31,062 bases of DNA from Candidatus Aenigmatarchaeota archaeon (GCA_046760225.1 JBHIDR010000005.1:1-31062); one strand, 5' to 3'; counted from the stretch's first letter, positions 5,464 to 22,448 are shown. The notes: a model not told the origin generated them from the letters alone. Program-made: numbers and translations.

Positions 5464-6876
5464 CTATGAGAGAAAGTTGAGGTTCTTCTCGAAGTAGTTG
5501 CGGAAGAATATCATGAAGTCAGGAGGAAGGGTGCTTATCATCTTTATTGCATCTGCACCGCTTGCTATTTTTGCGCTTGCTATCTCTGGTGCCAGCTTGC
5601 TGGGTATTCCCTTTGCCTTGAGGTCCTTTGACTTCTGGGAAAAGAAATCGTTGAGGAAAAGAAGTGCTGCTGTGTGTTTCCTTTGTGTTTCCACAAACCA
5701 GTTGTTTCCTTCAACAAATACCTTCTTGTCCTTGTAGTGCTTGAGGAAGGCATTGCTCTGCTTTGCAGAAAAGATTGTGGGTCCCATGTGCTTTACTGTT
5801 CTTGGGACCTTCCAGACATCTAATTCCAGTACCAGCAGGCATTCCTTGTTATCTGCAAATGCCTGTGAGCGCATTACCCTGAACCCGCCTTCTGCTAAAA
5901 GCCCTGTTAGTCTTACAAGTGTGCGCCTCATCTGGGGCCAGAGCACGTCATCCAGAACATCTGGCCGCTTGAAGTGGATGAGGTAGAACCTGCTGCCCCT
6001 TTTCTTTATTTCCCTGAATATTTCATTTGTGGAATAGGGCCTGCCTTTTTCAACTATGAACTTCTTAGAGTGTGGGTGTTTGAGGAACTCGTTGCAGGCA
6101 AGGACAAATTTATAGAAGCTCTCAGGTGATACGGCTGCTGCAACATTCCTGTTCGGGTCAACAGGATCAATGACAATCAGGGGGGAACGGAACTTCTCAA
6201 CCAGCTTTTGCCTGTCTGGTTTTCTCTTCAGGTCAATTGCAACTCCTGCATGCCACTTGCTTGCCTGCTTCAGGAGATTGAGGAATGATTTGTGCTTTAT
6301 GATCAGGAGCTCGCACAGGTATCCTGAAAAGCCCTGTGTCTTGACATCTGCACCATAGCAGCCTGCTGCCTTGCAGAACTGCTTCAATAACCTTACATCA
6401 TCTGTCTTCTTTCCTATGTTCCTGTTGACAAAGCGCACATGATGGGGCGTGCGGTCAACTGCTGACTTTATCTTTGCAGGGTTCTTGATGTTGTAGCAGG
6501 GCACTATGTCAACATCGAATGTCTTTCTCTTGAACTTTACCTTGCCCCTGAGGTAAGGGTGCTCGGCATAGGCAATCCTGTACTTGCCCTTGAGGTCCTT
6601 TATTATCTTCTTTGCAGCATCCAATCCTTTCTTCTGAAGCTGCTTCCTCTTGAGATGAGGAGAGAAAAGAAGGAAAAGGTCTATCTCATTCCTTCCAGCA
6701 AGCCATGTTCCCTTCACAACAGAGCCGCAGAGCATGGGCTTTGCATGCTTCTTGGAGACAGCTATTATCCTCCTTGTGAATTCGCCCATCTCCCTTTCTT
6801 CTTTTTTACCTGGCTTGATTTTTTTCAGTGCTGCTGCCAGTGTTTTTTCAATTTTCCCTTTAGCCAACTTTACCAC
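5464..6876 (-). CDS. cca: CCA-adding enzyme (archaeal class I tRNA nucleotidyltransferase)
   Basis: GSVVKGTWLxGxxEIDLF, AYAEHPY, VDIVPCY, SAVDRTPHH, GFSGYLCELL, DPVDPNRNVAAA. Confidence 0.97.
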   Translation of the reverse strand: MVKLAKGKIEKTLAAALKKIKPGKKEEREMGEFTRRIIAVSKKHAKPMLCGSVVKGTWLAGRNEIDLFLLFSPHLKRKQLQKKGLDAAKKIIKDLKGKYRIAYAEHPYLRGKVKFKRKTFDVDIVPCYNIKNPAKIKSAVDRTPHHVRFVNRNIGKKTDDVRLLKQFCKAAGCYGADVKTQGFSGYLCELLIIKHKSFLNLLKQASKWHAGVAIDLKRKPDRQKLVEKFRSPLIVIDPVDPNRNVAAAVSPESFYKFVLACNEFLKHPHSKKFIVEKGRPYSTNEIFREIKKRGSRFYLIHFKRPDVLDDVLWPQMRRTLVRLTGLLAEGGFRVMRSQAFADNKECLLVLELDVWKVPRTVKHMGPTIFSAKQSNAFLKHYKDKKVFVEGNNWFVETQRKHTAALLFLNDFFSQKSKDLKAKGIPSKLAPEIASAKIASGADAIKMISTLPPDFMIFFRNYFEKNLNFLS

Positions 6877-6922
6877 ATAACTTTATATGGAGGCTTAATA
6901 AATAAAGATTAGGTGAAAACAA

Positions 6923-7570
6923 ATGGTGCTGAACGAGGTCTTTGCACAAGTGTTCATCAATCTTTGGAACGGCTTCCTACTGGCATTGCCAGGTATAGTG
7001 GCAGCAGTCATCACACTGTTTATAGGTTTCATTATAGGAAAGCTTGCAGGGATGGTTGTCAGGGAGATAATAGTGAGGCTGAAGATAGACGAGTGGATAG
7101 CTGAGGAAGGTGTCACGTTCAAGTTTTCCAGCGTGTTCGATGTAATAACCAGATGGATAATATACCTTGTCTTCATCCAGCAGGCAGCGATATTCCTGAA
7201 TGTGCAGGCAATAACAATATTCGTGAACAATGTGATATCCATCATACCGCCACTGATTCAGGCTGGGTTGCTGGTGATAGTGGGTTATTCTCTTGCAATC
7301 TACATGAAGGAGAGGATAATAAGCTCAAAGACGCTTTATGCGGACGTGGTCGGTAAGACAGTGTTCTTCCTTATCCTTTATCTCTCAATTGCAATGGCCC
7401 TGTCACAGATGAGAATCGACACAACCCTGGTGAACAACATACTTCTGCTCATAGTGGCTGGAGCAAGCCTGGGGGTGGCAATAGCCCTTGGTCTTGGACT
7501 AAAGGACGTTGTTGCTGTATCTGCAAAAGACTATGCACGGAAGTTCAAGAAAGGAAGACGAAGAAGGTAA
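6923..7570 (+). CDS. MscS-family TM-helix repeat membrane protein (CmpX-like)
   Basis: LPGIVAAVITLFIGFIIGK and IPPLIQAGLLVIVG repeats; C-terminal AIALGLGLKD. Confidence 0.8.
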   Translation: MVLNEVFAQVFINLWNGFLLALPGIVAAVITLFIGFIIGKLAGMVVREIIVRLKIDEWIAEEGVTFKFSSVFDVITRWIIYLVFIQQAAIFLNVQAITIFVNNVISIIPPLIQAGLLVIVGYSLAIYMKERIISSKTLYADVVGKTVFFLILYLSIAMALSQMRIDTTLVNNILLLIVAGASLGVAIALGLGLKDVVAVSAKDYARKFKKGRRRR

Positions 7571-7892: not shown

Positions 7893-8603
7893 CTAGCTTC
7901 TCTGCTTTATTGTGAATTCGGGATAGACCACTATTCCCTTGTTAGTGATCCTGTACTCCACAAGCGATTTCCTGTGGGATGCCCCCCTCATCTTCCTTAT
8001 GGAAATCGCGTTCTTGTAGTACTTGTCAAAGGAGATGTTGTTCGTGAGTGTTATCACGCCGTCCACAACGAACTCCTCAAAGCCATACCAGCTAATGTCA
8101 GAGGAGCCTTCCCTGACCTCTGTTGTAAGAACAGATGTGCATCCAAGGTTGCTCAGCATGTCCGTGAGCGTAAGGAGCGCCCTCCTCCTTTGCTCCTCGT
8201 TCTTGAAGAGCATCAGGAAGAGGTTTATGGAATCTATGGCAACCCTCTTGATTCTCTTCTGCCTTATCACTTCCCCTATCTCATCAAGGAAGTCCCTGGG
8301 CTTTGCCTTTACCTTGTCCTGGAACCTCATTATGTCTGCCATGGAGCCGCCTATCAATGTGAGCCTTTTGTTCCTCTTGATGTCCATGCCCACGGAAAGC
8401 ATGTCATTTGTCATTTTTTTCTTGTTCTGCTCCAGGGTTATGAAAAGGCCGTTCTCCCCTTTCTGTGTGCCAGCATGAACGAACTGCATGGCCAGGGTGG
8501 TCTTGCCTGTACCAGTTACACCTGATACAAGTATTACCTTTCCTGGCAAAAACCCGCCATTAAGCAGCTTGTTAAGGCCCCTTATTCCCGTGTCAACCTT
8601 CAT
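7893..8603 (-). CDS. Single-domain KaiC/RAD55-like RecA-superfamily ATPase
   Basis: TGIRGLNKLLNGGF, Walker A GVTGTGKT, FITLEQ, Walker B VAIDS, EEFVVDGVI, RKMRG. Confidence 0.92.
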   Translation of the reverse strand: MKVDTGIRGLNKLLNGGFLPGKVILVSGVTGTGKTTLAMQFVHAGTQKGENGLFITLEQNKKKMTNDMLSVGMDIKRNKRLTLIGGSMADIMRFQDKVKAKPRDFLDEIGEVIRQKRIKRVAIDSINLFLMLFKNEEQRRRALLTLTDMLSNLGCTSVLTTEVREGSSDISWYGFEEFVVDGVITLTNNISFDKYYKNAISIRKMRGASHRKSLVEYRITNKGIVVYPEFTIKQRS

Positions 8604-12712: not shown

Positions 12713-12982
12713 ATGATAGACGTTATTAAAAAACTGCCAGAGCATTTTGAATTGGATCCAATAGGCATGACTTTGACAGTGAAGAAAGCTGGAAGATATT
12801 CTTATGATGCACAGGGGGCAGGATGGACTTATTTTAAAGAAGAGCCTTCAGAACGTAAGTTTGCAAATTATTTTGAAATCGACCCATTAACTTTGACCTT
12901 TAGAGTGGACAAGCCTGGAAAATATGAGTATGATGCGCAGTCAGGGGCTTGGATGTATAAGGGACAAAAGAGTAACATTTAA
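12713..12982 (+). CDS. Small protein made of two internal repeats
   Basis: FELDPIGMTLTVKKAGRYSYDAQGAGWTY and FEIDPLTLTFRVDKPGKYEYDAQSGAWMY. Confidence 0.75.
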   Translation: MIDVIKKLPEHFELDPIGMTLTVKKAGRYSYDAQGAGWTYFKEEPSERKFANYFEIDPLTLTFRVDKPGKYEYDAQSGAWMYKGQKSNI

Positions 12983-13054
12983 AAATACAAAAATACTAAT
13001 ATTATTGCCTGTGCCAGTGACTCAGGGTGCAAGTGATAAAGAAAGTGATTGACA

Positions 13055-13300
13055 ATGGGAGTAGAGGTTCCAGATCCGGAAGAATGCGGAAAATGCTTCA
13101 AATGCAAAGATGAAAAGCTCTGCGGCTGGCCATTTCCTTCTGAGCCTAATAAATGTATTTATTATGATTCTGGTGGCGAAGTAGTCCATGTGAGGTACAG
13201 GAGCGGCGAAAATATAATGTACAGGCGCTGCAGCAGACCAAACGGCCAACCTGATGAGATAGAAGGAATCGTCACATACGACGTAAAGCAGCTTGTCTGA
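13055..13300 (+). CDS. Small Cys-rich hypothetical protein
   Basis: CGKCFKCKDEKLC plus two more Cys; GTGA SD-like element. Confidence 0.6.
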   Translation: MGVEVPDPEECGKCFKCKDEKLCGWPFPSEPNKCIYYDSGGEVVHVRYRSGENIMYRRCSRPNGQPDEIEGIVTYDVKQLV

Positions 13301-13304
13301 ATTC

Positions 13305-13634
13305 TTATCTTAGCTTCTCTTCTATAATCTTGAGCCTTGCCTCGATTATGTCTAGCTTGCTGAGGATTACACCTATTCTGTCCTCCTCCTTTCTTTCCGG
13401 CCTTGAAGGAAACCTTTCTTCTGCGAATTCAGGAGGCACATATGGCCTGGCAGGCGGTGCTTCTCGTGTAGGTGCAGCCGGCCCGCGTGCAGGAGGTGCT
13501 GGCCTGAACTCGCGTGGTGGTTCTGTGGGTGGTGCTGTTGGTGGCGCGGCCCTGAACGGCGGTCCAGTTAGCTTGAGCTCTTCTGGGATTTCTTCTTCCT
13601 TTTTCTTTTTTCTTCTCAGTACTTCGAAAACCAT
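13305..13634 (-). CDS. Pro-rich disordered protein with C-terminal coiled coil
   Basis: APPTAPPTEPP... then ILSKLDIIEARLKIIEEKL heptads; TAATG coupling to the upstream gene. Confidence 0.75.
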   Translation of the reverse strand: MVFEVLRRKKKKEEEIPEELKLTGPPFRAAPPTAPPTEPPREFRPAPPARGPAAPTREAPPARPYVPPEFAEERFPSRPERKEEDRIGVILSKLDIIEARLKIIEEKLR

Positions 13635-14131
13635 TAAACCTCCTCCACGAGCTCTGCCTCGAACATTTCCCTTATTTCCCTGTCAAAGTTTTCAGTCTGC
13701 CTCTTTGCTTCCTCTACATAACTTCTTATCTGCTTTAAATAAAAAGTTTTCATGTTGGCGACCTTGAGGGTCTTGTCAAGCGCTGTTGAATAGGGTATCT
13801 TTGTCTCGAGCCATGGCTTTATCTTTACCTTGACATATCCGCTCTTGTCCTTGATGTTCTGCCTTCCCTGTATGACAACCTTTATCCAGAATGTTGTCAG
13901 GCTGTCCTTGCCTGCCTTGCCTCTCCACTGGCCGAAGAACTCGATCGGGTCCCCGAGCTTGTCCCATTTGACCTTGTCCTCGAAAAAGTTCGCAGCCCCG
14001 ACCTTGAATATCATCCTTATCTTTTCGTTCATCACGCCAAAAAGCCTGGTGGGATGGTGGCCCTCGAACTCCCTTGATATGTCCTCTTCTGGAGCAAGCA
14101 CATCTGTTTTCAAAATATAGTCAGGCATCAA
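13634..14131 (-). CDS. Hypothetical alpha/beta protein, paralog of 14137..14643
   Basis: Aligns along its length with the neighbour; GGGGA SD; real start may be ATG 14128. Confidence 0.8.
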   Translation of the reverse strand: MMPDYILKTDVLAPEEDISREFEGHHPTRLFGVMNEKIRMIFKVGAANFFEDKVKWDKLGDPIEFFGQWRGKAGKDSLTTFWIKVVIQGRQNIKDKSGYVKVKIKPWLETKIPYSTALDKTLKVANMKTFYLKQIRSYVEEAKRQTENFDREIREMFEAELVEEV

Positions 14132-14136
14132 ATCCC

Positions 14137-14643
14137 CTATTCTGTATGAGTAAGCCTTTTGAGGTCCTCAAGAAATATGCCTATGAGCTTCCTGCCGTCC
14201 CTTAGCATCTGCTCCCTTTTTGAAGCATAGAACAGCCTGTGCCATGTCATGCGCAGAAACTCATAGAGCAAGGAGCGCTCCCATACAGTGTCCTGAGGAT
14301 ACTCTGTTCTCAGCGCGCCTTCAACAACTATGTCAGCGCTTCCCTGTCCCTTGCTTGTCTGGCCACTCAGGCTAACATCAATCTTGTAGTAGGAGTTCCT
14401 GTCCAGGTCCTTGTCAAGCTCCCATTTGACCTTGAACTTTTCAGGCTCTCCCTTGACCCATGAGAACTTCTTTTCCTGTATCTCGCCAGGGTGGACCCTG
14501 AAGACAGTCTGAAGCAGCTGCGGTATTTCCTTGTAGAACCTCTCTGGCTTGGAGCCTGTGAAATGTACCTTTGCCTTTGGCCATGGCTTGAGAAGGTCGT
14601 CCTGGATCATCATCTTTGTCCTTGCTATTACCATACCAATCAT
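14137..14643 (-). CDS. Hypothetical alpha/beta protein, paralog of 13634..14131
   Basis: DLLKPWPKAKVHFTGSKPERFY vs DVLAPEEDISREFEGHHPTRLF; LRTEYPQDTVWERSL vs LETKIPYSTALDKTL. Confidence 0.8.
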   Translation of the reverse strand: MIGMVIARTKMMIQDDLLKPWPKAKVHFTGSKPERFYKEIPQLLQTVFRVHPGEIQEKKFSWVKGEPEKFKVKWELDKDLDRNSYYKIDVSLSGQTSKGQGSADIVVEGALRTEYPQDTVWERSLLYEFLRMTWHRLFYASKREQMLRDGRKLIGIFLEDLKRLTHTE

Positions 14644-14703
14644 TTAGTATCTTGTCTATTTTAAGATATAAAGTTTTATATTGCATGTGCTTGAATTATT
14701 ATT

Positions 14704-14955
14704 ATGAGCCGAATGGCTGAAATGGTACAGACAGTGGTTGTTGTACTGCTGTTCATATTCATAGGCGCGGTTGCGTATGTTCTGTGGTCAATCTCTTCCA
14801 AGCTCTTTGGTGTGTTGCTCATGATACTGGGCGTGCTCATACTGGTTTATTTCCCAGACATCAGGCAATACCAGCCTGCTTCCTTTGCTATAATGGGAAG
14901 GGTGATAGGCGCGGTTCTGCTCTTACTGGGCATACTGATTTTTGTGCTTACATGA
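14704..14955 (+). CDS. Small 3-TM membrane protein
   Basis: Three hydrophobic helices; first gene of the plus-strand operon. Confidence 0.75.
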   Translation: MSRMAEMVQTVVVVLLFIFIGAVAYVLWSISSKLFGVLLMILGVLILVYFPDIRQYQPASFAIMGRVIGAVLLLLGILIFVLT

Positions 14956-14965
14956 GGCTGGTAAA

Positions 14966-16645
14966 ATGGTAGACAAACCAATATTCGATATAATACCTCC
15001 TGAAAAAAGGTCAGGAATACCATCAAAGAAAGGACTGCCTGTAACTGGCCCAGACTCACCCTATCTCGGAACCTATGTGCTGGTAGGCCCTATAAACTCT
15101 CCTGGTAAGGAGGAATCTGCAAACCAGTGCGTGATGCTGAACATGACAGCAGCACCAGGGGTTGCATCAGCACTCTACTATTCCCTTGTTTTCCAGCTCG
15201 GCAAATGGGGATACAGTGTGATGAAGGCTGACGACTGGATAGAGGTATCGCCTGCGCATGCTGAAATGTATCAGAGGATAATGGCACAGAAGGGGGAGCT
15301 GGAGCGCATAATAAAGGGCGGGCTTGTATCAGCTGCAGAAGCTGTTTCCCATTATGAGCTTGTAAAGCATGACCTTAGGAAATACAAGGAGATAATGGAT
15401 TATTTTGCAGCAAAGGACGAGCATACCTTGAGGGCAATGTTCATTGACAATGTTGATGTGCACACAGATGTGCAGGGACAGGCACCTGTTGCACTCAGGT
15501 CAATAGCACCAAGATGGCCCACAATAATCTCTGACTTCATGAAGCTCGGTGATGAGGACATAGATCCTGACAAGATTGCAAAAAAGCTCGATGTGAGCAA
15601 GGCAGAGGGTGTTGTGCTTGCAACAAAGAACAGGCTGTATATTGAGTGGAAGAAGCTGTTCAGTGAGACCGTGAAGGAGAGGTATGCAAGCCTGAAGTCC
15701 ATGGCCGAGGCAAGAAAGAAGACTGTTACAGAGTACAAGCAATGGCTCAAGCCGTATATTACCAAGTACAAGATAATGAAAACAGCGCATGAATCACCTG
15801 CAGGAAGAAGCGGCTCCCTGTCCTCTTATGCAGACATAACAGGGCAGAGGACATTTGCCAATGGCATAAGGATATGGGCATGGAAGAGCTTCAAGGCAAT
15901 AGAGGCGCGCAAGCCTGCCCTGGAAAGGGTCGGGGAATTCGTATATGATCCGTATGACGACTATGTGAGGAGGAACCTCGTACTTAACAACAAAACAGGG
16001 CTTGCAAGCATCTATCCCTGGCTGCTGAACAAGGTGCCAGAGGAGCATTTCAAGCCGGGTGTTGTTGAATGCGAGGCAGACCACATAGTCCAGAATGAAA
16101 TCAAGAAGCACTGGATAGCTGGTAAGCACGGCCTGGACCCGAACATGCTCTATTACATGTTCTTTGACTTTGAAATAGACAGGGTGGGCTCAGTGCTCCC
16201 AATCGGAGAGCTGGAGGACATAACCTTCACAATCAAGACCTATCTGATGTCACAGAACATAATGCTTGTAAAGCTCCTGGAAATGAAGTGCAGGGAAAGG
16301 GAACTGGAGCACTACCTGGACGAGATAGTTGGCCTCACAGTTGAGAAAAGGCCTGTTGAAGAAGTGATAAAAAAGGAATATCCTGAGCTCTTTGGAATAA
16401 AAAGGGAGCTCACGCCCCTGCAGAAAATAGGAGAGGAATGGAAGGCACTGGGCAGGGAATTCAAGGGATTCTTTGCCCCGCTTGGGAAGATCTCACCAAC
16501 CCCTGAGAAGAGGGGCTTTTTTGTCAAGCCAGGACCATATGAAAGGGAATTCAGGCAGAGGCTGTCAAAGCAGTACCTCACTCCAATGGGCGAGAAGTTC
16601 GCAACAGTTGCAGGCTTTTTGAAGGACAAGATGGGTGTTGGATAA
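14966..16645 (+). CDS. Large hypothetical helical/coiled-coil protein
   Basis: Long ORF with codon usage like neighbouring genes; start at ATG 14966 (GAGG SD); TAATG coupling to the next gene. Confidence 0.8.
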   Translation: MVDKPIFDIIPPEKRSGIPSKKGLPVTGPDSPYLGTYVLVGPINSPGKEESANQCVMLNMTAAPGVASALYYSLVFQLGKWGYSVMKADDWIEVSPAHAEMYQRIMAQKGELERIIKGGLVSAAEAVSHYELVKHDLRKYKEIMDYFAAKDEHTLRAMFIDNVDVHTDVQGQAPVALRSIAPRWPTIISDFMKLGDEDIDPDKIAKKLDVSKAEGVVLATKNRLYIEWKKLFSETVKERYASLKSMAEARKKTVTEYKQWLKPYITKYKIMKTAHESPAGRSGSLSSYADITGQRTFANGIRIWAWKSFKAIEARKPALERVGEFVYDPYDDYVRRNLVLNNKTGLASIYPWLLNKVPEEHFKPGVVECEADHIVQNEIKKHWIAGKHGLDPNMLYYMFFDFEIDRVGSVLPIGELEDITFTIKTYLMSQNIMLVKLLEMKCRERELEHYLDEIVGLTVEKRPVEEVIKKEYPELFGIKRELTPLQKIGEEWKALGREFKGFFAPLGKISPTPEKRGFFVKPGPYEREFRQRLSKQYLTPMGEKFATVAGFLKDKMGVG

Positions 16646-18192
16646 TGCCAAAGGACTATGTAATAGGTGTTTCAAGTGGAATCTGGGGCGTTATAAAGAA
16701 AGAGGAAGTCCTTGGAATAAACAAGAAACTGCAATGGATTGCAACTTCAGGAACTAATCATGTGCAGGTTGACCTGGAAACAATAAATGAGTTCAAGGAG
16801 CCTGACCTGAAGGAGAAAATAGAAAGATCTAAAAAAAGCCTTAATATTAATTTCGGCATACATGGTGAAGCAAGACCAATAGTTGGTATGGACACCTTGC
16901 CCCTGGACTCTGCACTCATGGCAGACTACATAAGGGCACATGACAGGTTGATGATACATGTGAAGGAATGTTCAAAGCTAGGTGCAGAGTACTGCACAAT
17001 CCATTCTTCTGAATCAAAGCCATTCATAGTTCTGTGGCATGAGCTTCAGTCTACAAACCTCTGTGATTTCTGGGGAAGACCACTCCGTGAGTTCCTAGAG
17101 GAAAACAAAAGGATAGCAGAATGGCTCCTGAGCATTAAGGACAAGCCTCAATTAGGGGACATTCTAAGGCACATACCTTCTGCAGATTACATATTGAGAG
17201 AGTATCTAATACCTCATTACAAAAGTGAACATGAGGGCAAGATGCCTGATGAAAAGGAACTAAAGAAATTAAAGGAAGAAGCACACGGGGAGGCTGTAAA
17301 AAGATTGATTAATTTTGTGAATTCAGGTGAATCCCATTATGGAGGCGAGAGAATAGCGTACCTAGCTGTTGCCAAGTGGATGCAGAGCGAGAGGGACTAT
17401 CTCTGGGACAAGATAGTGGGAAGAATACTGGATGACAAGACTATGCTTACAAAAACAGAGAAATGGGTGCCTGCTGTTGCTGCAAAATATATATGGGGAC
17501 ATTTCTGCCCGAGAAAAGGAGGATATCCTGATCCAAAGCCAATATTGAAAGATAAGAGAATGTACTTCTGCTTTGAGGCTCCTATGGCTGAAAGAGGATA
17601 TGAGGGGTATATGCGGCTTGTAACGCTTACTGATATCTATTATATGTGCGAGGCAATAGGTTCTCCCTGGGTGGGCATGACAATGGACATGGAGCACATG
17701 ATGAGCTGCAACATAGACCCCAAAAAGGACATAGAGAACCTTCCACCAAAAGGAGGCCAGAGGCTGAAAGTTGTGCACGTAACAGTTCCAACACCAATGA
17801 ATCCCTCACACCTTCCTGTGCCACTTGGTTCAGAGGCCCAGCTCTACATCTATGAAAGGCTCTATGACCTCAGGAAAAAAGGCTTCAAAACAGGCTGGTG
17901 GATATTTGAGAGAGGCGGTGAGGAAGGACTGATAAAGGACACAGTAACAGTGATGAGGATGATCAAGAAATATCTTGAGAAGGGCGTTGACCCGAAAAAG
18001 CTTCCGCCTGAGTTCTTTGGCATGGACATGGAAGCAGCTGACTGGAAGACCCAGGTGCTCAAGGTAAAGGACCATGCTTTTGACCCGCTGAAGGGGCTGC
18101 TCGTCACGCCAGAGGAACAGATGGGTGTATTTGGTGAAGCAGCCAAGGAAAAGGGCAAGATAGCTGAATGGCTAAAGGAGAAGTACAGGTAA
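16645..18192 (+). CDS. Xylose isomerase/endonuclease IV-like TIM-barrel metalloenzyme with large helical insertion
   Basis: IHGE, IHSS, CFEAP, TMDMEH, VVHVT, SHLP, WIFERGG in AP_endonuc_2 order. Confidence 0.75.
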   Translation: MPKDYVIGVSSGIWGVIKKEEVLGINKKLQWIATSGTNHVQVDLETINEFKEPDLKEKIERSKKSLNINFGIHGEARPIVGMDTLPLDSALMADYIRAHDRLMIHVKECSKLGAEYCTIHSSESKPFIVLWHELQSTNLCDFWGRPLREFLEENKRIAEWLLSIKDKPQLGDILRHIPSADYILREYLIPHYKSEHEGKMPDEKELKKLKEEAHGEAVKRLINFVNSGESHYGGERIAYLAVAKWMQSERDYLWDKIVGRILDDKTMLTKTEKWVPAVAAKYIWGHFCPRKGGYPDPKPILKDKRMYFCFEAPMAERGYEGYMRLVTLTDIYYMCEAIGSPWVGMTMDMEHMMSCNIDPKKDIENLPPKGGQRLKVVHVTVPTPMNPSHLPVPLGSEAQLYIYERLYDLRKKGFKTGWWIFERGGEEGLIKDTVTVMRMIKKYLEKGVDPKKLPPEFFGMDMEAADWKTQVLKVKDHAFDPLKGLLVTPEEQMGVFGEAAKEKGKIAEWLKEKYR

Positions 18193-18224: not shown

Positions 18225-18998
18225 ATGGAAAAGCAACTTGCTATTCTGGGTCTAGGGCATGCCCTTTACGCAGAAGATGTCAAATATTTGCCTGAAGAGC
18301 AATATGTACAAGAAGCCTTCAAGAGGTATGGTGAAGCCAACTTGGAGGAGATTGAGTTTGACAAGGAGCTAGGGTCATTATCAATACACGGAAAATACAG
18401 GGGCAGGAAGTTGGGGTTTCATTACATCCCGTTCGGCCTTTCTTACGCAACAGCCATGAATATTATATTCGAAGAAAATAAGCTGGAAGCTGCAGCAGGT
18501 GTGGGTTTCTGCGGTTCATTGCATCCAGACATTGAAAAGGATACAGTAATAATTGCAAGGAAGGCTGCAATGTCGCCTTTTGCTGCATATGACAAGGAAT
18601 GGAAGGACAAGCTGGCATGGGGAAAGGCAGATGAAAGGCTTGCAGAATCCATGCTCAGGAAAGCAGAAGAACATGGTTATGAAGCCAGATTAGGAACAAT
18701 ATTCACAGTGATAAACACGAGGTGCGAAACCCCTGGTTTCATTGCTGAACTAAGGGAAGCAGGCTTTGATGGGGTTGAAATGGAAACAGCAGCACTATAC
18801 CAGATTGCCAATGCGGCTGAAGTGCCTATAGCCACAATGCTTTATGTTTCAGACAGTCAGGCGCTTAACCCTGGTTGTGACGTACCCAAACTCGTGCAAG
18901 AGCTGGAAAAGCAGGGAAAGCACATAGAGATGACTGAGATAGCCAGGGATGTGCTACTGGAACATTTAAATGCTGAGGAGGATAAGTTTCAAGGGTGA
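18225..18998 (+). CDS. Nucleoside phosphorylase (PNP/UDP family 1)
   Basis: GVGFCGSLH, GVEMETAALY, YVSDS. Confidence 0.85.
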   Translation: MEKQLAILGLGHALYAEDVKYLPEEQYVQEAFKRYGEANLEEIEFDKELGSLSIHGKYRGRKLGFHYIPFGLSYATAMNIIFEENKLEAAAGVGFCGSLHPDIEKDTVIIARKAAMSPFAAYDKEWKDKLAWGKADERLAESMLRKAEEHGYEARLGTIFTVINTRCETPGFIAELREAGFDGVEMETAALYQIANAAEVPIATMLYVSDSQALNPGCDVPKLVQELEKQGKHIEMTEIARDVLLEHLNAEEDKFQG

Positions 18999-19003
18999 GC
19001 TGA

Positions 19004-20317
19004 ATGGCCAAGAAAGCAGCAAAGAAAGTGAACAAGAAGAAGGAAGTTAAGAAGGGAAAAAAGATAGGCGAGAAGCTCAGGAAGTTCTCGCTCAGCACAA
19101 GGCTGAAGAGCTCGGAGAGCTTCAAGAGCAAGATACTCGGGGTTTTCAAGGACTACATAAAGGCGGTTGTGGTCTGGGGAAGCATAACAAGGGGCGACTA
19201 CACTGGCAAGAGCGATGTTGATATTTACATAATCTTTGATGACACCAAGATGCCTATCAAGAAGTTCGATGAGATGAGGGACAAGATAGACAGGGACATC
19301 GGAAAGCTGGCAAAGGAGATCGATCCAAGGCTGCATCCCCAGCCCGTGCTTGCGCTGACAGAGTTCTGGGACGGCATAAGGAAGCAGCACCCGCTGTTCT
19401 ACAATATCGTGAGGGAAGGCTATGCAATACATGATACTGGCTTCTTCATTCCAATGAGGAAGCTGCTCGAGTGGGGCAAGTTCCCTGCCACGCAGGAAGC
19501 AGCAGAGCTAAGAATAGGGGGAGTGCCCAAAAGGCTGAGAAGGGTGGAGAATGTCAAGCTCTACATGATTGCCGAGGACCTCTACTATGCGATCACAGAT
19601 GCTTCCCAGGCAGTGCTCATGTACATCGGTGTTGGCCCGCCTGCACCAAAAGTGCTTGCCAGGGAGGTAAGACTACATCTTGTTGAGCCCGGACTGCTTG
19701 AGGAGGAATGGGCACAGCTTGTTGAGGAGGTTTTCAAGTTCAGGAAATCAGTTGAGCACAAGGAAATGAGGAAGATAAAGGGAGAGGAGGTTGACAGGTG
19801 GATAGAGAGGACAGATGAGTTCGTCAAAAGGATGTTCAGGCTGCTCCAGGAGCTGCAGCTCAGCAAGAAGGCAAGCGACATAAAGAAGAGCTATGAGGTA
19901 ATGATAAAGGCTTCTGTGGCTGCACTCAAGGCACTGGACAGGCTGCCTGAGGAGCCTGAAAAGCTGCCACAGGCATTCAAGAAATACCTTATTGAGCCTG
20001 GCCTGGTGAGCCCCTGGTATGCTGATGTGTTCGGCAAGGTAATTGAGATGAGGAAGATGCTTGAGGACAAGAAACTGGACGAGATAACTGACAGGGACGT
20101 GTACATGACTAAGGAATACGTCAGGAGGTTTATACTGGATGTCAGGGGGGTGATAGAGAAGAAGAGGCGCGAGGCACCTCCTGAAACCGAGCAGGAGGAC
20201 ATCCAGAAGTCCAAGAAAGCAGAGAAAAGGCTCAAGGCAGTCAAGGAGATAGTTGAGACTGCAAAGGAGATAGAGAAACTGCCCGCAGGCAGGAAAGCAA
20301 GGAAAAAGAAGAAATAA
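19004..20317 (+). CDS. Minimal nucleotidyltransferase (MNT) fused to two HEPN-like domains
   Basis: WGSITRGDYTGKSDVDIY; duplicated helical domains LVEPGLL...RKSVEH and LIEPGLV...RKMLED. Confidence 0.8.
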   Translation: MAKKAAKKVNKKKEVKKGKKIGEKLRKFSLSTRLKSSESFKSKILGVFKDYIKAVVVWGSITRGDYTGKSDVDIYIIFDDTKMPIKKFDEMRDKIDRDIGKLAKEIDPRLHPQPVLALTEFWDGIRKQHPLFYNIVREGYAIHDTGFFIPMRKLLEWGKFPATQEAAELRIGGVPKRLRRVENVKLYMIAEDLYYAITDASQAVLMYIGVGPPAPKVLAREVRLHLVEPGLLEEEWAQLVEEVFKFRKSVEHKEMRKIKGEEVDRWIERTDEFVKRMFRLLQELQLSKKASDIKKSYEVMIKASVAALKALDRLPEEPEKLPQAFKKYLIEPGLVSPWYADVFGKVIEMRKMLEDKKLDEITDRDVYMTKEYVRRFILDVRGVIEKKRREAPPETEQEDIQKSKKAEKRLKAVKEIVETAKEIEKLPAGRKARKKKK

Positions 20318-20672: not shown

Positions 20673-21113
20673 TCATTCTTCGATAAAAATCAGTTCTCCC
20701 TCATTTCTTGGGCATACTTTCCTGACATCCCCGTTCTTATAGCTTATCTCCTTCTCTATGCACCATTGTTTGTAGCATTTTCTGCTAATTGGGCATAAAT
20801 CAGAGGTGCCGTAATATGGGGACTTTAATGACCTGTGTATCTTCTTTATGCCTCTCTCCAGCCCCTTTTTGCTAAATGTTGACTGCAGACGCTGCTGAAC
20901 AGAGCGGTGCATTTTTTCTGGAAAATCCAGCCTGTTAAAGATTGCATTAGTTGTATAGAAATGGTCCTTGTTCTTGTCAAGGAGCTCTCTCTTGATAAAG
21001 CTTATTGCCTCTTCTATGTCATCATCACTGTACCACGTCTTGTCATCTATGATAAATTTCTTCTTTGTGCGCTCAACAGCTTCCTTTATTTTATTTCCCA
21101 AGCTTTCTTGCAT
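20673..21113 (-). CDS. Hypothetical protein with C-terminal Cys cluster
   Basis: CPISRKCYKQWC...VCP; fills the gap between L35Ae and the KaiC-like gene. Confidence 0.6.
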   Translation of the reverse strand: MQESLGNKIKEAVERTKKKFIIDDKTWYSDDDIEEAISFIKRELLDKNKDHFYTTNAIFNRLDFPEKMHRSVQQRLQSTFSKKGLERGIKKIHRSLKSPYYGTSDLCPISRKCYKQWCIEKEISYKNGDVRKVCPRNEGELIFIEE

Positions 21114-21163
21114 GCAAAAACATTACGCATAAACTTTTAAATATTCAAAGGTTAATTGTGCTT

Positions 21164-21916
21164 ATGGCAAGGAAAATGAAAAAGAAAGTTGCAAAAAGGG
21201 GGGTAAAAAAGAAGACCAGAAAGAAACGTTCTGTTGAAAGAATTCCTACTGGAATAAAGGGCCTTGACAGGTTCATGAAGGGCGGTTTGATAAAGGGCAC
21301 AACAACGCTCCTTACTGGTTCCACAGGAACAGGCAAGACCATATTCTGCACCCAGTTCATTCTCGAGGGGCTCAGGAAAAAGGAGAAGTGCCTTTTCATC
21401 ACAATGGAAGAAAGAGTGGAAGACATAATAAATGATGTCAAGGAGTTCAAATGGGACCTCCGGAAGCATATGGACTCTGGACTGCTCATACTGGAGTACA
21501 GGGACCCCTTCCAGCTTGCAAACCTTGCTGAAAAGCTAGCAGAGAGGATAAAGAAGAACAAGATACAGAGGGTGGTGATTGATTCCACTTCTCTCTTCGG
21601 CCTGTATTTCAAGGACCCGTTTGATGTGAGGAAACAGCTCTTCAACCTGATGGCAAAGCTCAAGTCATCAGGAGCAACAACCATTCTCACATCTGAGATG
21701 CCTGAAGCAGACCACATGCTATCGCGCTTCGGCGTAGAGGAATACATCACTGACAACGTAATAATACTGAACTACCTGGGAGTCGGAGGAGTCTATGGAA
21801 GGTCGTTGTCAATAAGGAAGATGAGAAGGACTGACCATGGAAAGGATGTCTATCCGCTGAAGATAGGAAAGAGGGGAATAGAGATCAGGGGAGCTGAAAG
21901 AGGCATCAAGCTTTAG
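21164..21916 (+). CDS. Single-domain KaiC/RAD55-like ATPase with Lys-rich N-tail
   Basis: RIPTGIKGLD, GSTGTGKT, FITMEE, VVIDS, SRFGVEEYITD, RKMRRTDH; start at ATG 21164. Confidence 0.92.
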   Translation: MARKMKKKVAKRGVKKKTRKKRSVERIPTGIKGLDRFMKGGLIKGTTTLLTGSTGTGKTIFCTQFILEGLRKKEKCLFITMEERVEDIINDVKEFKWDLRKHMDSGLLILEYRDPFQLANLAEKLAERIKKNKIQRVVIDSTSLFGLYFKDPFDVRKQLFNLMAKLKSSGATTILTSEMPEADHMLSRFGVEEYITDNVIILNYLGVGGVYGRSLSIRKMRRTDHGKDVYPLKIGKRGIEIRGAERGIKL

Positions 21917-22448
21917 AAACATCAAAAGCACAATACTTGTCCCCACAGGCAATGCACTTGCTTTCTACGACCTTGACCTTGGAGCCGAAAATAACAGTGA
22001 AGTGCTCCTTTATTAGGCCTTTCAACCAGAAATCTATTGGCTTCTTGCTGTTGTTCTTGTGGAGCATCAGCCATTTGGTTGGTAAGGTGCTTTCCCTTAC
22101 AATGACCTGCGCTGACCTGTTTTTCATGCTCATCCTGCTCACCTCTATCATGCCCCATCCTGTACTGTTGAGTATCTTTGTTGTGAAGTCCATTATCTTG
22201 CTCTTGGACAATTCAGAAAAGTTGTAGCGCTTGAGGTATCTTTTTGCTGCAGCCTCAACCTGGTACCTGCCCATCTCCTCCAACAATTTCCCTGTCTTTT
22301 TTCTGCCGAGCTTCTTAAGAAGCACATCATACATATGGACAACTACGCCCGACGGAAAGAGCAGCACGTATTCTCCAAGCATCCTGATGTGCCCTTCCTC
22401 AAAGGTGAACTGGCCTGTCTGCATCAGTTTTGTCAAAAACCTGCTCAT
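21906..22448 (-). CDS. V4R (XylR_N/4VR) domain protein
   Basis: EEGHIRMLGE, TGWGMIE, ESKCIACGDKYCAFDV. Confidence 0.85.
   Translation of the reverse strand: MSRFLTKLMQTGQFTFEEGHIRMLGEYVLLFPSGVVVHMYDVLLKKLGRKKTGKLLEEMGRYQVEAAAKRYLKRYNFSELSKSKIMDFTTKILNSTGWGMIEVSRMSMKNRSAQVIVRESTLPTKWLMLHKNNSKKPIDFWLKGLIKEHFTVIFGSKVKVVESKCIACGDKYCAFDVSKA

Follow-up and report, generated by a model that had tools for sequence, protein, structure and literature searches.

We analysed the whole of a 31-kb contig from an archaeal genome of 0.85 Mb that is 83% complete (Candidatus Aenigmatarchaeota archaeon, GCA_046760225.1 JBHIDR010000005.1:1-31062; 31,062 nucleotides, hereafter the window), and describe a divergent gene cluster within it. 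A preliminary description of the sequence had recognized six genes in two tightly coupled operons diverging from a short spacer, and our analysis confirmed both the six open reading frames (ORFs) and the two divergent, translationally coupled operons (Table 1). The left arm consists of two paralogous genes, paralog A and then paralog B, followed by the gene for a Pro-rich helix protein; the right arm encodes a miniprotein with two to three transmembrane segments, a large protein which we refer to as the big protein, a split TIM barrel resembling endonuclease IV (Endo IV) and a nucleotidyltransferase (NTase). The spacer measures exactly 60 bp, as described, and presumably holds the predicted promoters of both arms. 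Both arms contain the one-base TAATG overlap reported for them: at 13632-13636 (minus strand) the Pro-rich protein gene overlaps the stop codon of paralog B, and at 16643-16647 the TIM-barrel gene overlaps that of the big protein. Two quoted motifs were also located: the big protein has WLKPY at residues 260-264, and the TIM barrel has FERGG at residues 421-425. The extent of six genes did not stand, however, as a seventh member, the NTase gene, lies beyond position 18192 and had been overlooked. The big protein has a possible alternative start, a TTG at 14942 which would give 567 aa, while for paralog B an ATG one codon past the TTG is the likelier start.

Table 1. Genes and features of the divergent cluster, in window coordinates
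Feature	Position	Strand	Description
Pro-rich protein	13305-13634	(-)	109 aa, third gene of left arm
Paralog B	13634-14131	(-)	165 aa from TTG, second gene of left arm
Paralog A	14137-14643	(-)	168 aa, first gene of left arm
Divergent intergenic spacer	14644-14703	.	60 bp, AT-rich
Small membrane protein (miniprotein)	14704-14955	(+)	83 aa, first gene of right arm
Big protein	14966-16645	(+)	559 aa from ATG
TIM barrel	16645-18192	(+)	515 aa, Endonuclease-IV-like metalloenzyme
PNP_UDP_1-family phosphorylase	18225-18998	(+)	between TIM-barrel gene and NTase gene
Nucleotidyltransferase (NTase)	19004-20317	(+)	437 aa, seventh module member

Comparison of gene order at 70 loci around homologues of the big protein, using ORF calls and BLASTP, demonstrated that the conserved unit is seven genes, with the NTase included. 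Homologues of the TIM-barrel gene were found at 55/70 related loci, of paralog A at 53/70, of paralog B at 48/70, of the NTase at 40/70, of the miniprotein at 33/70 and of the Pro-rich protein at 24/70. The TIM-barrel gene lies directly 3' of the big-protein gene in 48 of the 61 loci with room for it, a divergent upstream paralog is present in 47/60 loci (two paralogs in 44/60) and, of the 55 related loci with a TIM-barrel gene, 33 have the NTase gene beside it. The gene which stands between these two in the window, a PNP-family gene (PNP_UDP_1 match, E 2.9e-18; DeoD-like model under its cut-off), has a homologue at a single related locus (1/70; L073, on the opposite strand) and, on these synteny counts, has the appearance of a gene that entered the operon recently.

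The module is close to universal in the phylum of the window, for which we sampled 151 genomes belonging to one class and 28 families. Matches to the big protein and to the TIM-barrel protein were each detected in 150/151 genomes, to the NTase in 149/151 (at E<=1e-10) and to the paralog A query in 148/151, mostly as two matches per genome. Big protein, TIM barrel, paralogs and NTase are all absent from the same single genome, G004, which is 94% complete, and a more sensitive profile of the big protein (alignment A1) also gave no match in the genome at that position of the list. G004 belongs to family f3 of the same taxonomic order as the genome of the window and, as the only joint absence among the 151, represents a natural 'knock-out' lineage.

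A second, small sister phylum also carries the genes, with the big protein in 40/42 genomes and the TIM barrel in 37/42. Loci of this phylum are known from two records titled Nanohaloarchaea/Nanohalarchaeota, and one member shares 52% identity with a protein from 'Aenigmarchaeota archaeon ex4484_52', on which basis we think that the phylum is the lineage called EX4484-52 in GTDB. The gene order in this phylum is NTase-TIM-paralog B-paralog A/miniprotein-big protein: the TIM-barrel gene follows paralog B on the left arm in 4/14 loci, once with the NTase gene next to it, and in these rearranged loci the miniprotein and the big protein remain on the right arm. A homologue of the miniprotein was found in 4/14 loci of the second phylum. 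Module genes occur together and go missing together, and they remain linked where their order has changed. The persistence of linkage through rearrangement and the joint loss in G004 form the main argument for a shared function.

The preliminary description had suggested that these genes recur together in Woesearchaeota, Pacearchaeota and Aenigmarchaeota. Co-occurrence and synteny without any housekeeping family are borne out (148-150/151 genomes, at linked loci), and recurrence in DPANN archaea stands for Aenigmatarchaeota, where the genes are near-universal, and extends to the second phylum, but no Woesearchaeota or Pacearchaeota name appeared among the matches listed, in searches none of which was aimed at those lineages. 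The related-locus records are mostly titled Candidatus Aenigmatarchaeota. One module-bearing metagenome-assembled genome titled 'Nanoarchaeota' falls in the window's own GTDB phylum, because a search centred there gave the same contig coordinates. In a control archaeal phylum, reached via a 'Thaumarchaeota'-titled genome, 1/81 genomes had a match, on a 2.4-kb contig, and the others none (0/80); this lone match is likely a binning artefact. Of 8000 candidates scored from a collection of 5.8 billion proteins, 409 were related to the big protein at E<=0.001, and those listed (120 of 409) are 42-100% identical over the full length and have no Pfam domain. The profile of the big protein retrieved 269 clusters at E<=0.001, and 134 at E<=1e-30, from 1.84 billion 50%-identity representatives, so the family appears to be small; 150 of the 269 clusters were listed, and weak relatives in other lineages are possible. 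Among ten representative clusters at the weak end, the five with names comprise three from Aenigm(at)archaeota and two from Candidatus Nanohaloarchaea. For paralog A, 101 relatives were found, also without Pfam domains.

The earlier claim of a metal-dependent TIM barrel of nuclease or phosphoesterase type agrees with the profile matches to Endo IV chains and with the conserved His, Asp and Glu residues. The single protein matched Pfam AP_endonuc_2 (PF01261) at E 3.5e-6 over residues 300-437 only, and had no match to TIGR00587 (nfo) at E<=0.01, while the family profile matched the Endo IV chains 6khy and 2x7v (E 4e-4) and MJ1311 3wqo (7e-3), with both halves aligned. The N-terminal half also aligns with the genome's own 271-aa MJ1311-like protein (hhalign probability 88%, E 2.8e-6). 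Between the halves the barrel is split by an insertion of about 160 residues (about residues 125-285), for which the only matches were non-significant ones to coiled-coil proteins. In the second phylum the open frames of the TIM barrel reach 690-896 aa (e.g. G186:C85 and G194:C26), so the insertion is much longer there.

Ten residues (H73, H120, H286, E311, D348, E350, H351, H378, H389 and E422) are each conserved in at least 93% of 54 TIM-barrel sequences from both phyla. Endo IV of E. coli has nine metal ligands, H-H-E-D-H-H-D-H-E. In the alignment with 2x7v, ligand columns are occupied by H73, H120, E311, D348, H351 and H378; H389 and E422 are invariant and come further on, outside the printed alignments. 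A set as rich in His as this resembles that of the Endo IV-type multi-metal phosphodiesterases, unlike the E-D-H-E of sugar isomerases, and the protein is probably a multi-metal phosphodiesterase. Its likeness to Endo IV (Nfo/Apn1) and MJ1311 (PF01261) lies in an alignable barrel with invariant His, Glu and Asp residues at the aligned, putative ligand positions. It differs from the compact single-domain enzymes of about 280 aa in being 515 aa long with an interrupted barrel, in always being encoded with partner proteins and in forming a second copy beside a compact gene. The RNase P RNA gene (C8:10565-10841) is some 1.5 kb away from the compact Endo-IV/MJ1311-like gene (L115:457-1272, minus strand). 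The TIM barrel was also considered as the Rpp30 of this genome and rejected, as an RNase P RNA and an Rpp30 gene scoring above cut-off are present elsewhere.

The protein encoded directly upstream was described as a helical protein of about 560 aa. The size is right, but the fold is not purely helical, since the AlphaFold2 model (predicted local distance difference test, pLDDT, 79.8; predicted template modelling score, pTM, 0.70) has an alpha+beta head from which an antiparallel coiled-coil hairpin extends, formed by a 50-residue helix (99-148) and a 59-residue helix (212-270), with a small helical tip at 152-208. Most of the residues that are at least 93% conserved among 80 sequences lie between 136 and 263, with the majority of the family-invariant ones in the tip, and because of this concentration we consider the arm and its tip, as modelled, a probable functional surface. 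Most homologues carry a CxxC…CxxC (zinc-ribbon-like) Cys4 insertion in the head part, near residues 355-375 of the query, which the copy in the window lacks; one homologue with the insertion is named 'ribosomal protein L40E' in its source record, probably owing to it.

Searches for relatives outside this family were negative. No credible match of the big protein to Pfam or to PDB sequences was found, and the one match from a PDB profile search, to the N-terminus of a kinase, was due to chance. Comparison of the model with the PDB (Foldseek) gave nothing at E<=1e-3, comparison with BFVD gave a TM-score of about 0.1, a wide structure search (VIA) returned only the coiled coil, and the ESM Atlas held no usable feature match, its own model having a pTM of 0.29. 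Profile alignment with hhalign indicated no relationship to paralog A, paralog B or the TIM barrel. ABC_tran, SMC_N and AAA families, by which an ABC-type ATPase head would be recognized, were absent at E<=0.1 in Pfam and NCBIfam scans. A tipped antiparallel coiled-coil hairpin is shared with the dynein stalk, the arm of seryl-tRNA synthetase, the SMC/Rad50 arms and EnvC/RipA, but in contrast to these the big protein has no detected ATPase or known head domain, and the Cys4 insertion of its homologues is in the head sequence and not at the arm apex. A role as an analogue of NFACT/RqcH was rejected, as there is no NFACT-N or NFACT-R Pfam match and the genome's NFACT_N and NFACT-R domains are on contig C15. 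The latter matches (G000:C15:2062-2613 and 6074-7093) are about 3.4 kb apart in separate frames of 378 and 292 aa, which suggests that the NFACT/RqcH gene is split or interrupted in this genome.

The NTase combines an N-terminal catalytic domain like that of kanamycin nucleotidyltransferase (KNTase) and MNT proteins with a conserved C-terminal part of about 330 residues and Lys-rich termini. It scores over the Pfam cut-offs for Polbeta (33.5 bits) and NTP_transf_2 (29.4 bits), and the Pol-beta-fold motif G[GS]…[DE]x[DE] is present, with G59, S60, D71 and D73 invariant in 34 sequences; the protein is therefore probably a nucleotidyltransferase, as judged from these matches. MNT antitoxins and KNTase are the nearest solved relatives over the first 55-100 or so residues only: the family profile matches KNTase at E 4e-8 across the N-terminal 55 residues, the score against the MntA model is 22.5 bits (cut-off 60), and no family was detected for the C-terminal part. 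The likeness to kanamycin nucleotidyltransferase ANT(4') and MntA-type proteins is thus in the N-terminal catalytic domain and its GS…DxD motif. Unlike them, the NTase adds the unmatched C-terminal region and Lys-rich tails and belongs to the core gene set of a phylum instead of serving in resistance or in a toxin-antitoxin system, and no HEPN family was found for module neighbours in Pfam scans. It was rejected as the CCA-adding enzyme, the canonical one being encoded at 5464-6876 of the window. An NTase paralog with 34% identity is present elsewhere in the genome in a 371-aa frame (G000:C1:19465-20511), likewise in the same-genus G109, and NTase matches in several relatives (G021, G023 and G048) contain two to three in-frame stops, in each case of one kind only (TAA or TAG).

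The two proteins of about 165 aa on the left arm are true paralogs, as had been proposed. BLASTP aligned them with 27/117 identities (23%, E 1e-8), and the family profiles A3 (paralog A) and A4 (paralog B) aligned over 162 columns with an hhalign probability of 99.9% (E 1.8e-32). The model of paralog A (pLDDT 87.3) is an alpha+beta two-layer fold (b-b-a-b-b-b-b) with a 42-residue C-terminal helix. It resembles START/SRPBCC, TBP-like (DUF4468, YwmB) and KA1 two-layer domains in general topology, the scores of its neighbours (DUF4468, YwmB, KA1 and START/Ups1) being at the background level stated for the tool. The Pro-rich protein contains 21 Pro and is rich in Pro and Glu, with a basic stretch near its N-terminus, a linker that looks disordered and, at the C-terminus, an amphipathic helix (…ILSKLDIIEARLKIIEEKL). 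By eye, a small ORF of this design directly follows paralog B in 33/55 loci; its N-terminus is basic, it contains a motif like LPxDLExFR, and its C-terminal helix is of the kind DLILQKLETIDxRLKLIEEKL; the protein is more conserved than the BLAST count suggests. The miniprotein, for which three transmembrane segments had been claimed, does have three hydrophobic segments by hydropathy. Comparison of 12 homologues places the conserved core in a hairpin of two helices with a YFPD…YQ loop, and the window's copy has one extra hydrophobic helix ahead of this core. The large module proteins are all without hydrophobic segments. Apart from the TIM barrel, none of the six proteins first described had anything above threshold in Pfam, NCBIfam, PADLOC or PHROGs.

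Regarding the surroundings of the module, a TFIIB gene lies just upstream, the neighbouring genes are housekeeping genes by Pfam scans, and sequence composition is uniform across the region. Two small family-less ORFs lie between the TFB gene and the module, at 12713-12982 (+) and 13049-13300 (+); the 89-aa ORF of this pair resembles an internal tandem duplication (…ELDPIGMTLTVKKAGRYSYDAQGAGWTY / …EIDPLTLTFRVDKPGKYEYDAQSGAWMY) and the 83-aa ORF contains six Cys. The contig also carries two KaiC-like ATPase genes and two V4R-domain genes (460-933, 7893-8603, 21065-21916 and 21906-22448), one KaiC/V4R pair being adjacent and convergent (21065-22448). In a cluster of eight loci (e.g. L041:10536-11342) a calcineurin-like metallophosphoesterase gene stands directly 3' of the NTase gene, with a 4-base overlap in L041; there is none at this place in the window. 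Neighbours in subsets of loci, namely this metallophosphoesterase, a weak HhH-GPD gene, ABCE1, aRF1 and aIF5A, share no consistent theme.

Our favoured explanation, which we advance tentatively and at somewhat less than an even chance, is that these seven genes work as a functional module which belongs to the lineage core in Aenigmatarchaeota and in a small sister phylum, with their products predicted to form one membrane-associated complex. In such a complex the TIM barrel, as a two- or three-metal phosphodiesterase, would be the catalytic core, and the big protein, whose gene is translationally coupled to that of the barrel, would be its partner or a substrate-positioning arm acting via the conserved coiled-coil tip. 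The paralogs may form a heterodimer; along with the membrane hairpin and the small helix protein, this would tether the assembly or regulate it. The NTase might make or prime a phosphodiester-linked substrate for cleavage by the barrel, or might process the same polymer end. Because of the Endo IV ancestry of the barrel, the substrate is most likely nucleic acid, with ends or lesions being processed. The type of the NTase makes a protein, lipid or glycan carrying a nucleotidylyl group a serious alternative, which ranks second.

Several observations weigh against this explanation. The NTase is of the small-molecule- or protein-modifying KNTase/MNT type and not a polymerase, and so fits a nucleic-acid substrate less well. 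The AP_endonuc_2 score of the TIM barrel (27.3 bits) is under the Pfam cut-off of 31.1, and the Endo IV Asp before the last His (Asp229 in E. coli numbering) could not be placed in the protein. The genome has a separate, compact 271-aa Endo-IV/MJ1311-like protein (G000:C8:8256-9071), which could be its repair enzyme. Only one of the seven module proteins is predicted in the membrane. Family f11 and most second-phylum loci have the TIM-barrel gene apart from the big-protein gene, and the flanking TFB (22/70 loci) and L35Ae (21/70) genes are also syntenic in order-level relatives, so part of the gene order may reflect slow genome rearrangement.

A more far-reaching form of the explanation, which we regard as doubtful, is that the genes encode a hitherto undescribed molecular machine which defines Aenigmatarchaeota and the sister phylum and serves a lineage-specific essential process. 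An Endo-IV-derived metallo-phosphodiesterase and its partner protein would each extend a coiled-coil arm, the hairpin miniprotein, the heterodimer of novel alpha+beta proteins and the helix protein would hold the assembly at the membrane, and a dedicated nucleotidyltransferase would complete the machine. The process might be the handling of host-derived nucleic acid or cell-surface remodelling at host contact. A replacement division machinery was rejected for the module, as the genome has two FtsZ genes elsewhere.

The Endo-IV-type ligand set and the profile matches to Endo IV chains could also indicate a dedicated DNA-repair complex for base excision or end processing, in which the TIM barrel would be an AP endonuclease/3'-diesterase and the NTase and accessory proteins would process the nick. 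The glycosylase-like gene with a weak HhH-GPD match (25.7 bits against a cut-off of 26.2) that a 6-locus cluster has within a few kb, the calcineurin-like metallophosphoesterase directly after the NTase in the 8-locus cluster and the Lys-rich NTase termini are consistent with such a role. We nevertheless consider it unlikely, as a compact Endo-IV/MJ1311-like protein is already in the genome, the NTase is KNTase/MNT-like and not PolX, the operon is headed by a membrane miniprotein, and we know of no repair system with this composition.

The nearest solved relatives of the NTase nucleotidylylate small molecules or proteins, and this points instead to a writer and eraser of nucleotidylylation acting on a protein, a lipid head group or an envelope glycan, with the NTase adding a nucleoside monophosphate, the TIM barrel removing it and the paralogs serving as START/KA1-like membrane- or ligand-binding subunits. 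The weak START/SRPBCC, Ups1 and KA1 neighbours of the paralog model, the membrane protein in the module and the cytidylyltransferase-like and LPG_synthase_TM genes nearby (each in a 4-locus cluster) would suit this role, but these neighbours are found in few loci and the proposal is without a known target, and we judge it quite unlikely.

The preliminary description had raised nucleic-acid uptake, and a membrane-associated nuclease machine which scavenges host or environmental nucleic acid for nucleotide salvage would accommodate the coupling of the membrane hairpin protein to the big protein, the phosphodiesterase-type core enzyme, the PNP-family phosphorylase inside the operon and the small genome (0.85 Mb at 83% completeness). 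This is distinctly improbable, however: a PNP homologue occurs near the module in only 1/70 loci, the large proteins are without hydrophobic segments, and Pfam and NCBIfam scans detected no channel, pilus, ATPase or secretion signal in the module. That the genes have no common function, being unrelated lineage-specific genes kept adjacent by slow rearrangement of small genomes, would explain why the unrelated TFB, L35Ae and aIF5A are also position-conserved in order-level relatives. The absence of four families from the same genome, the linkage kept after rearrangement in the second phylum and the one-base overlaps in both arms make this very improbable. A mobile element or anti-virus defence island, for which only the NTase matches candidate models (PDC-S09, E 1.7e-11; generic MNT-type models), is dismissed as extremely improbable given a module that is near-universal and single-copy in its phylum, with housekeeping neighbours and uniform composition, no PADLOC family at E<=0.1 for six proteins and nothing better than E 0.06 in PHROGs.

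We found no description of the module in curated families, in solved structures or in the portions of text returned by a full-text literature search, those of PMC13607799 included. Its status as undescribed rests on this literature search and on the absence of Pfam and NCBIfam families. By sequence comparison, five of the seven module proteins appear to belong to no described family, and the enzyme core appears to be an unusual, split derivative of Endo IV. Confirmation of the complex could make the whole module categorically new. New folds or assemblies may be represented by the big protein and the paralogs, for which confident models exist, so that structural work on them is feasible.

The genomes of Aenigmatarchaeota, which are symbionts not yet in culture, are tiny. 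Because nearly every one of them keeps the gene set, it is very likely important to the lifestyle of the phylum. Identification of the substrate would give a function to a block of phylum-core 'dark matter', and might explain an essential step in the DPANN lifestyle, be it nucleic-acid handling, envelope chemistry or host contact.

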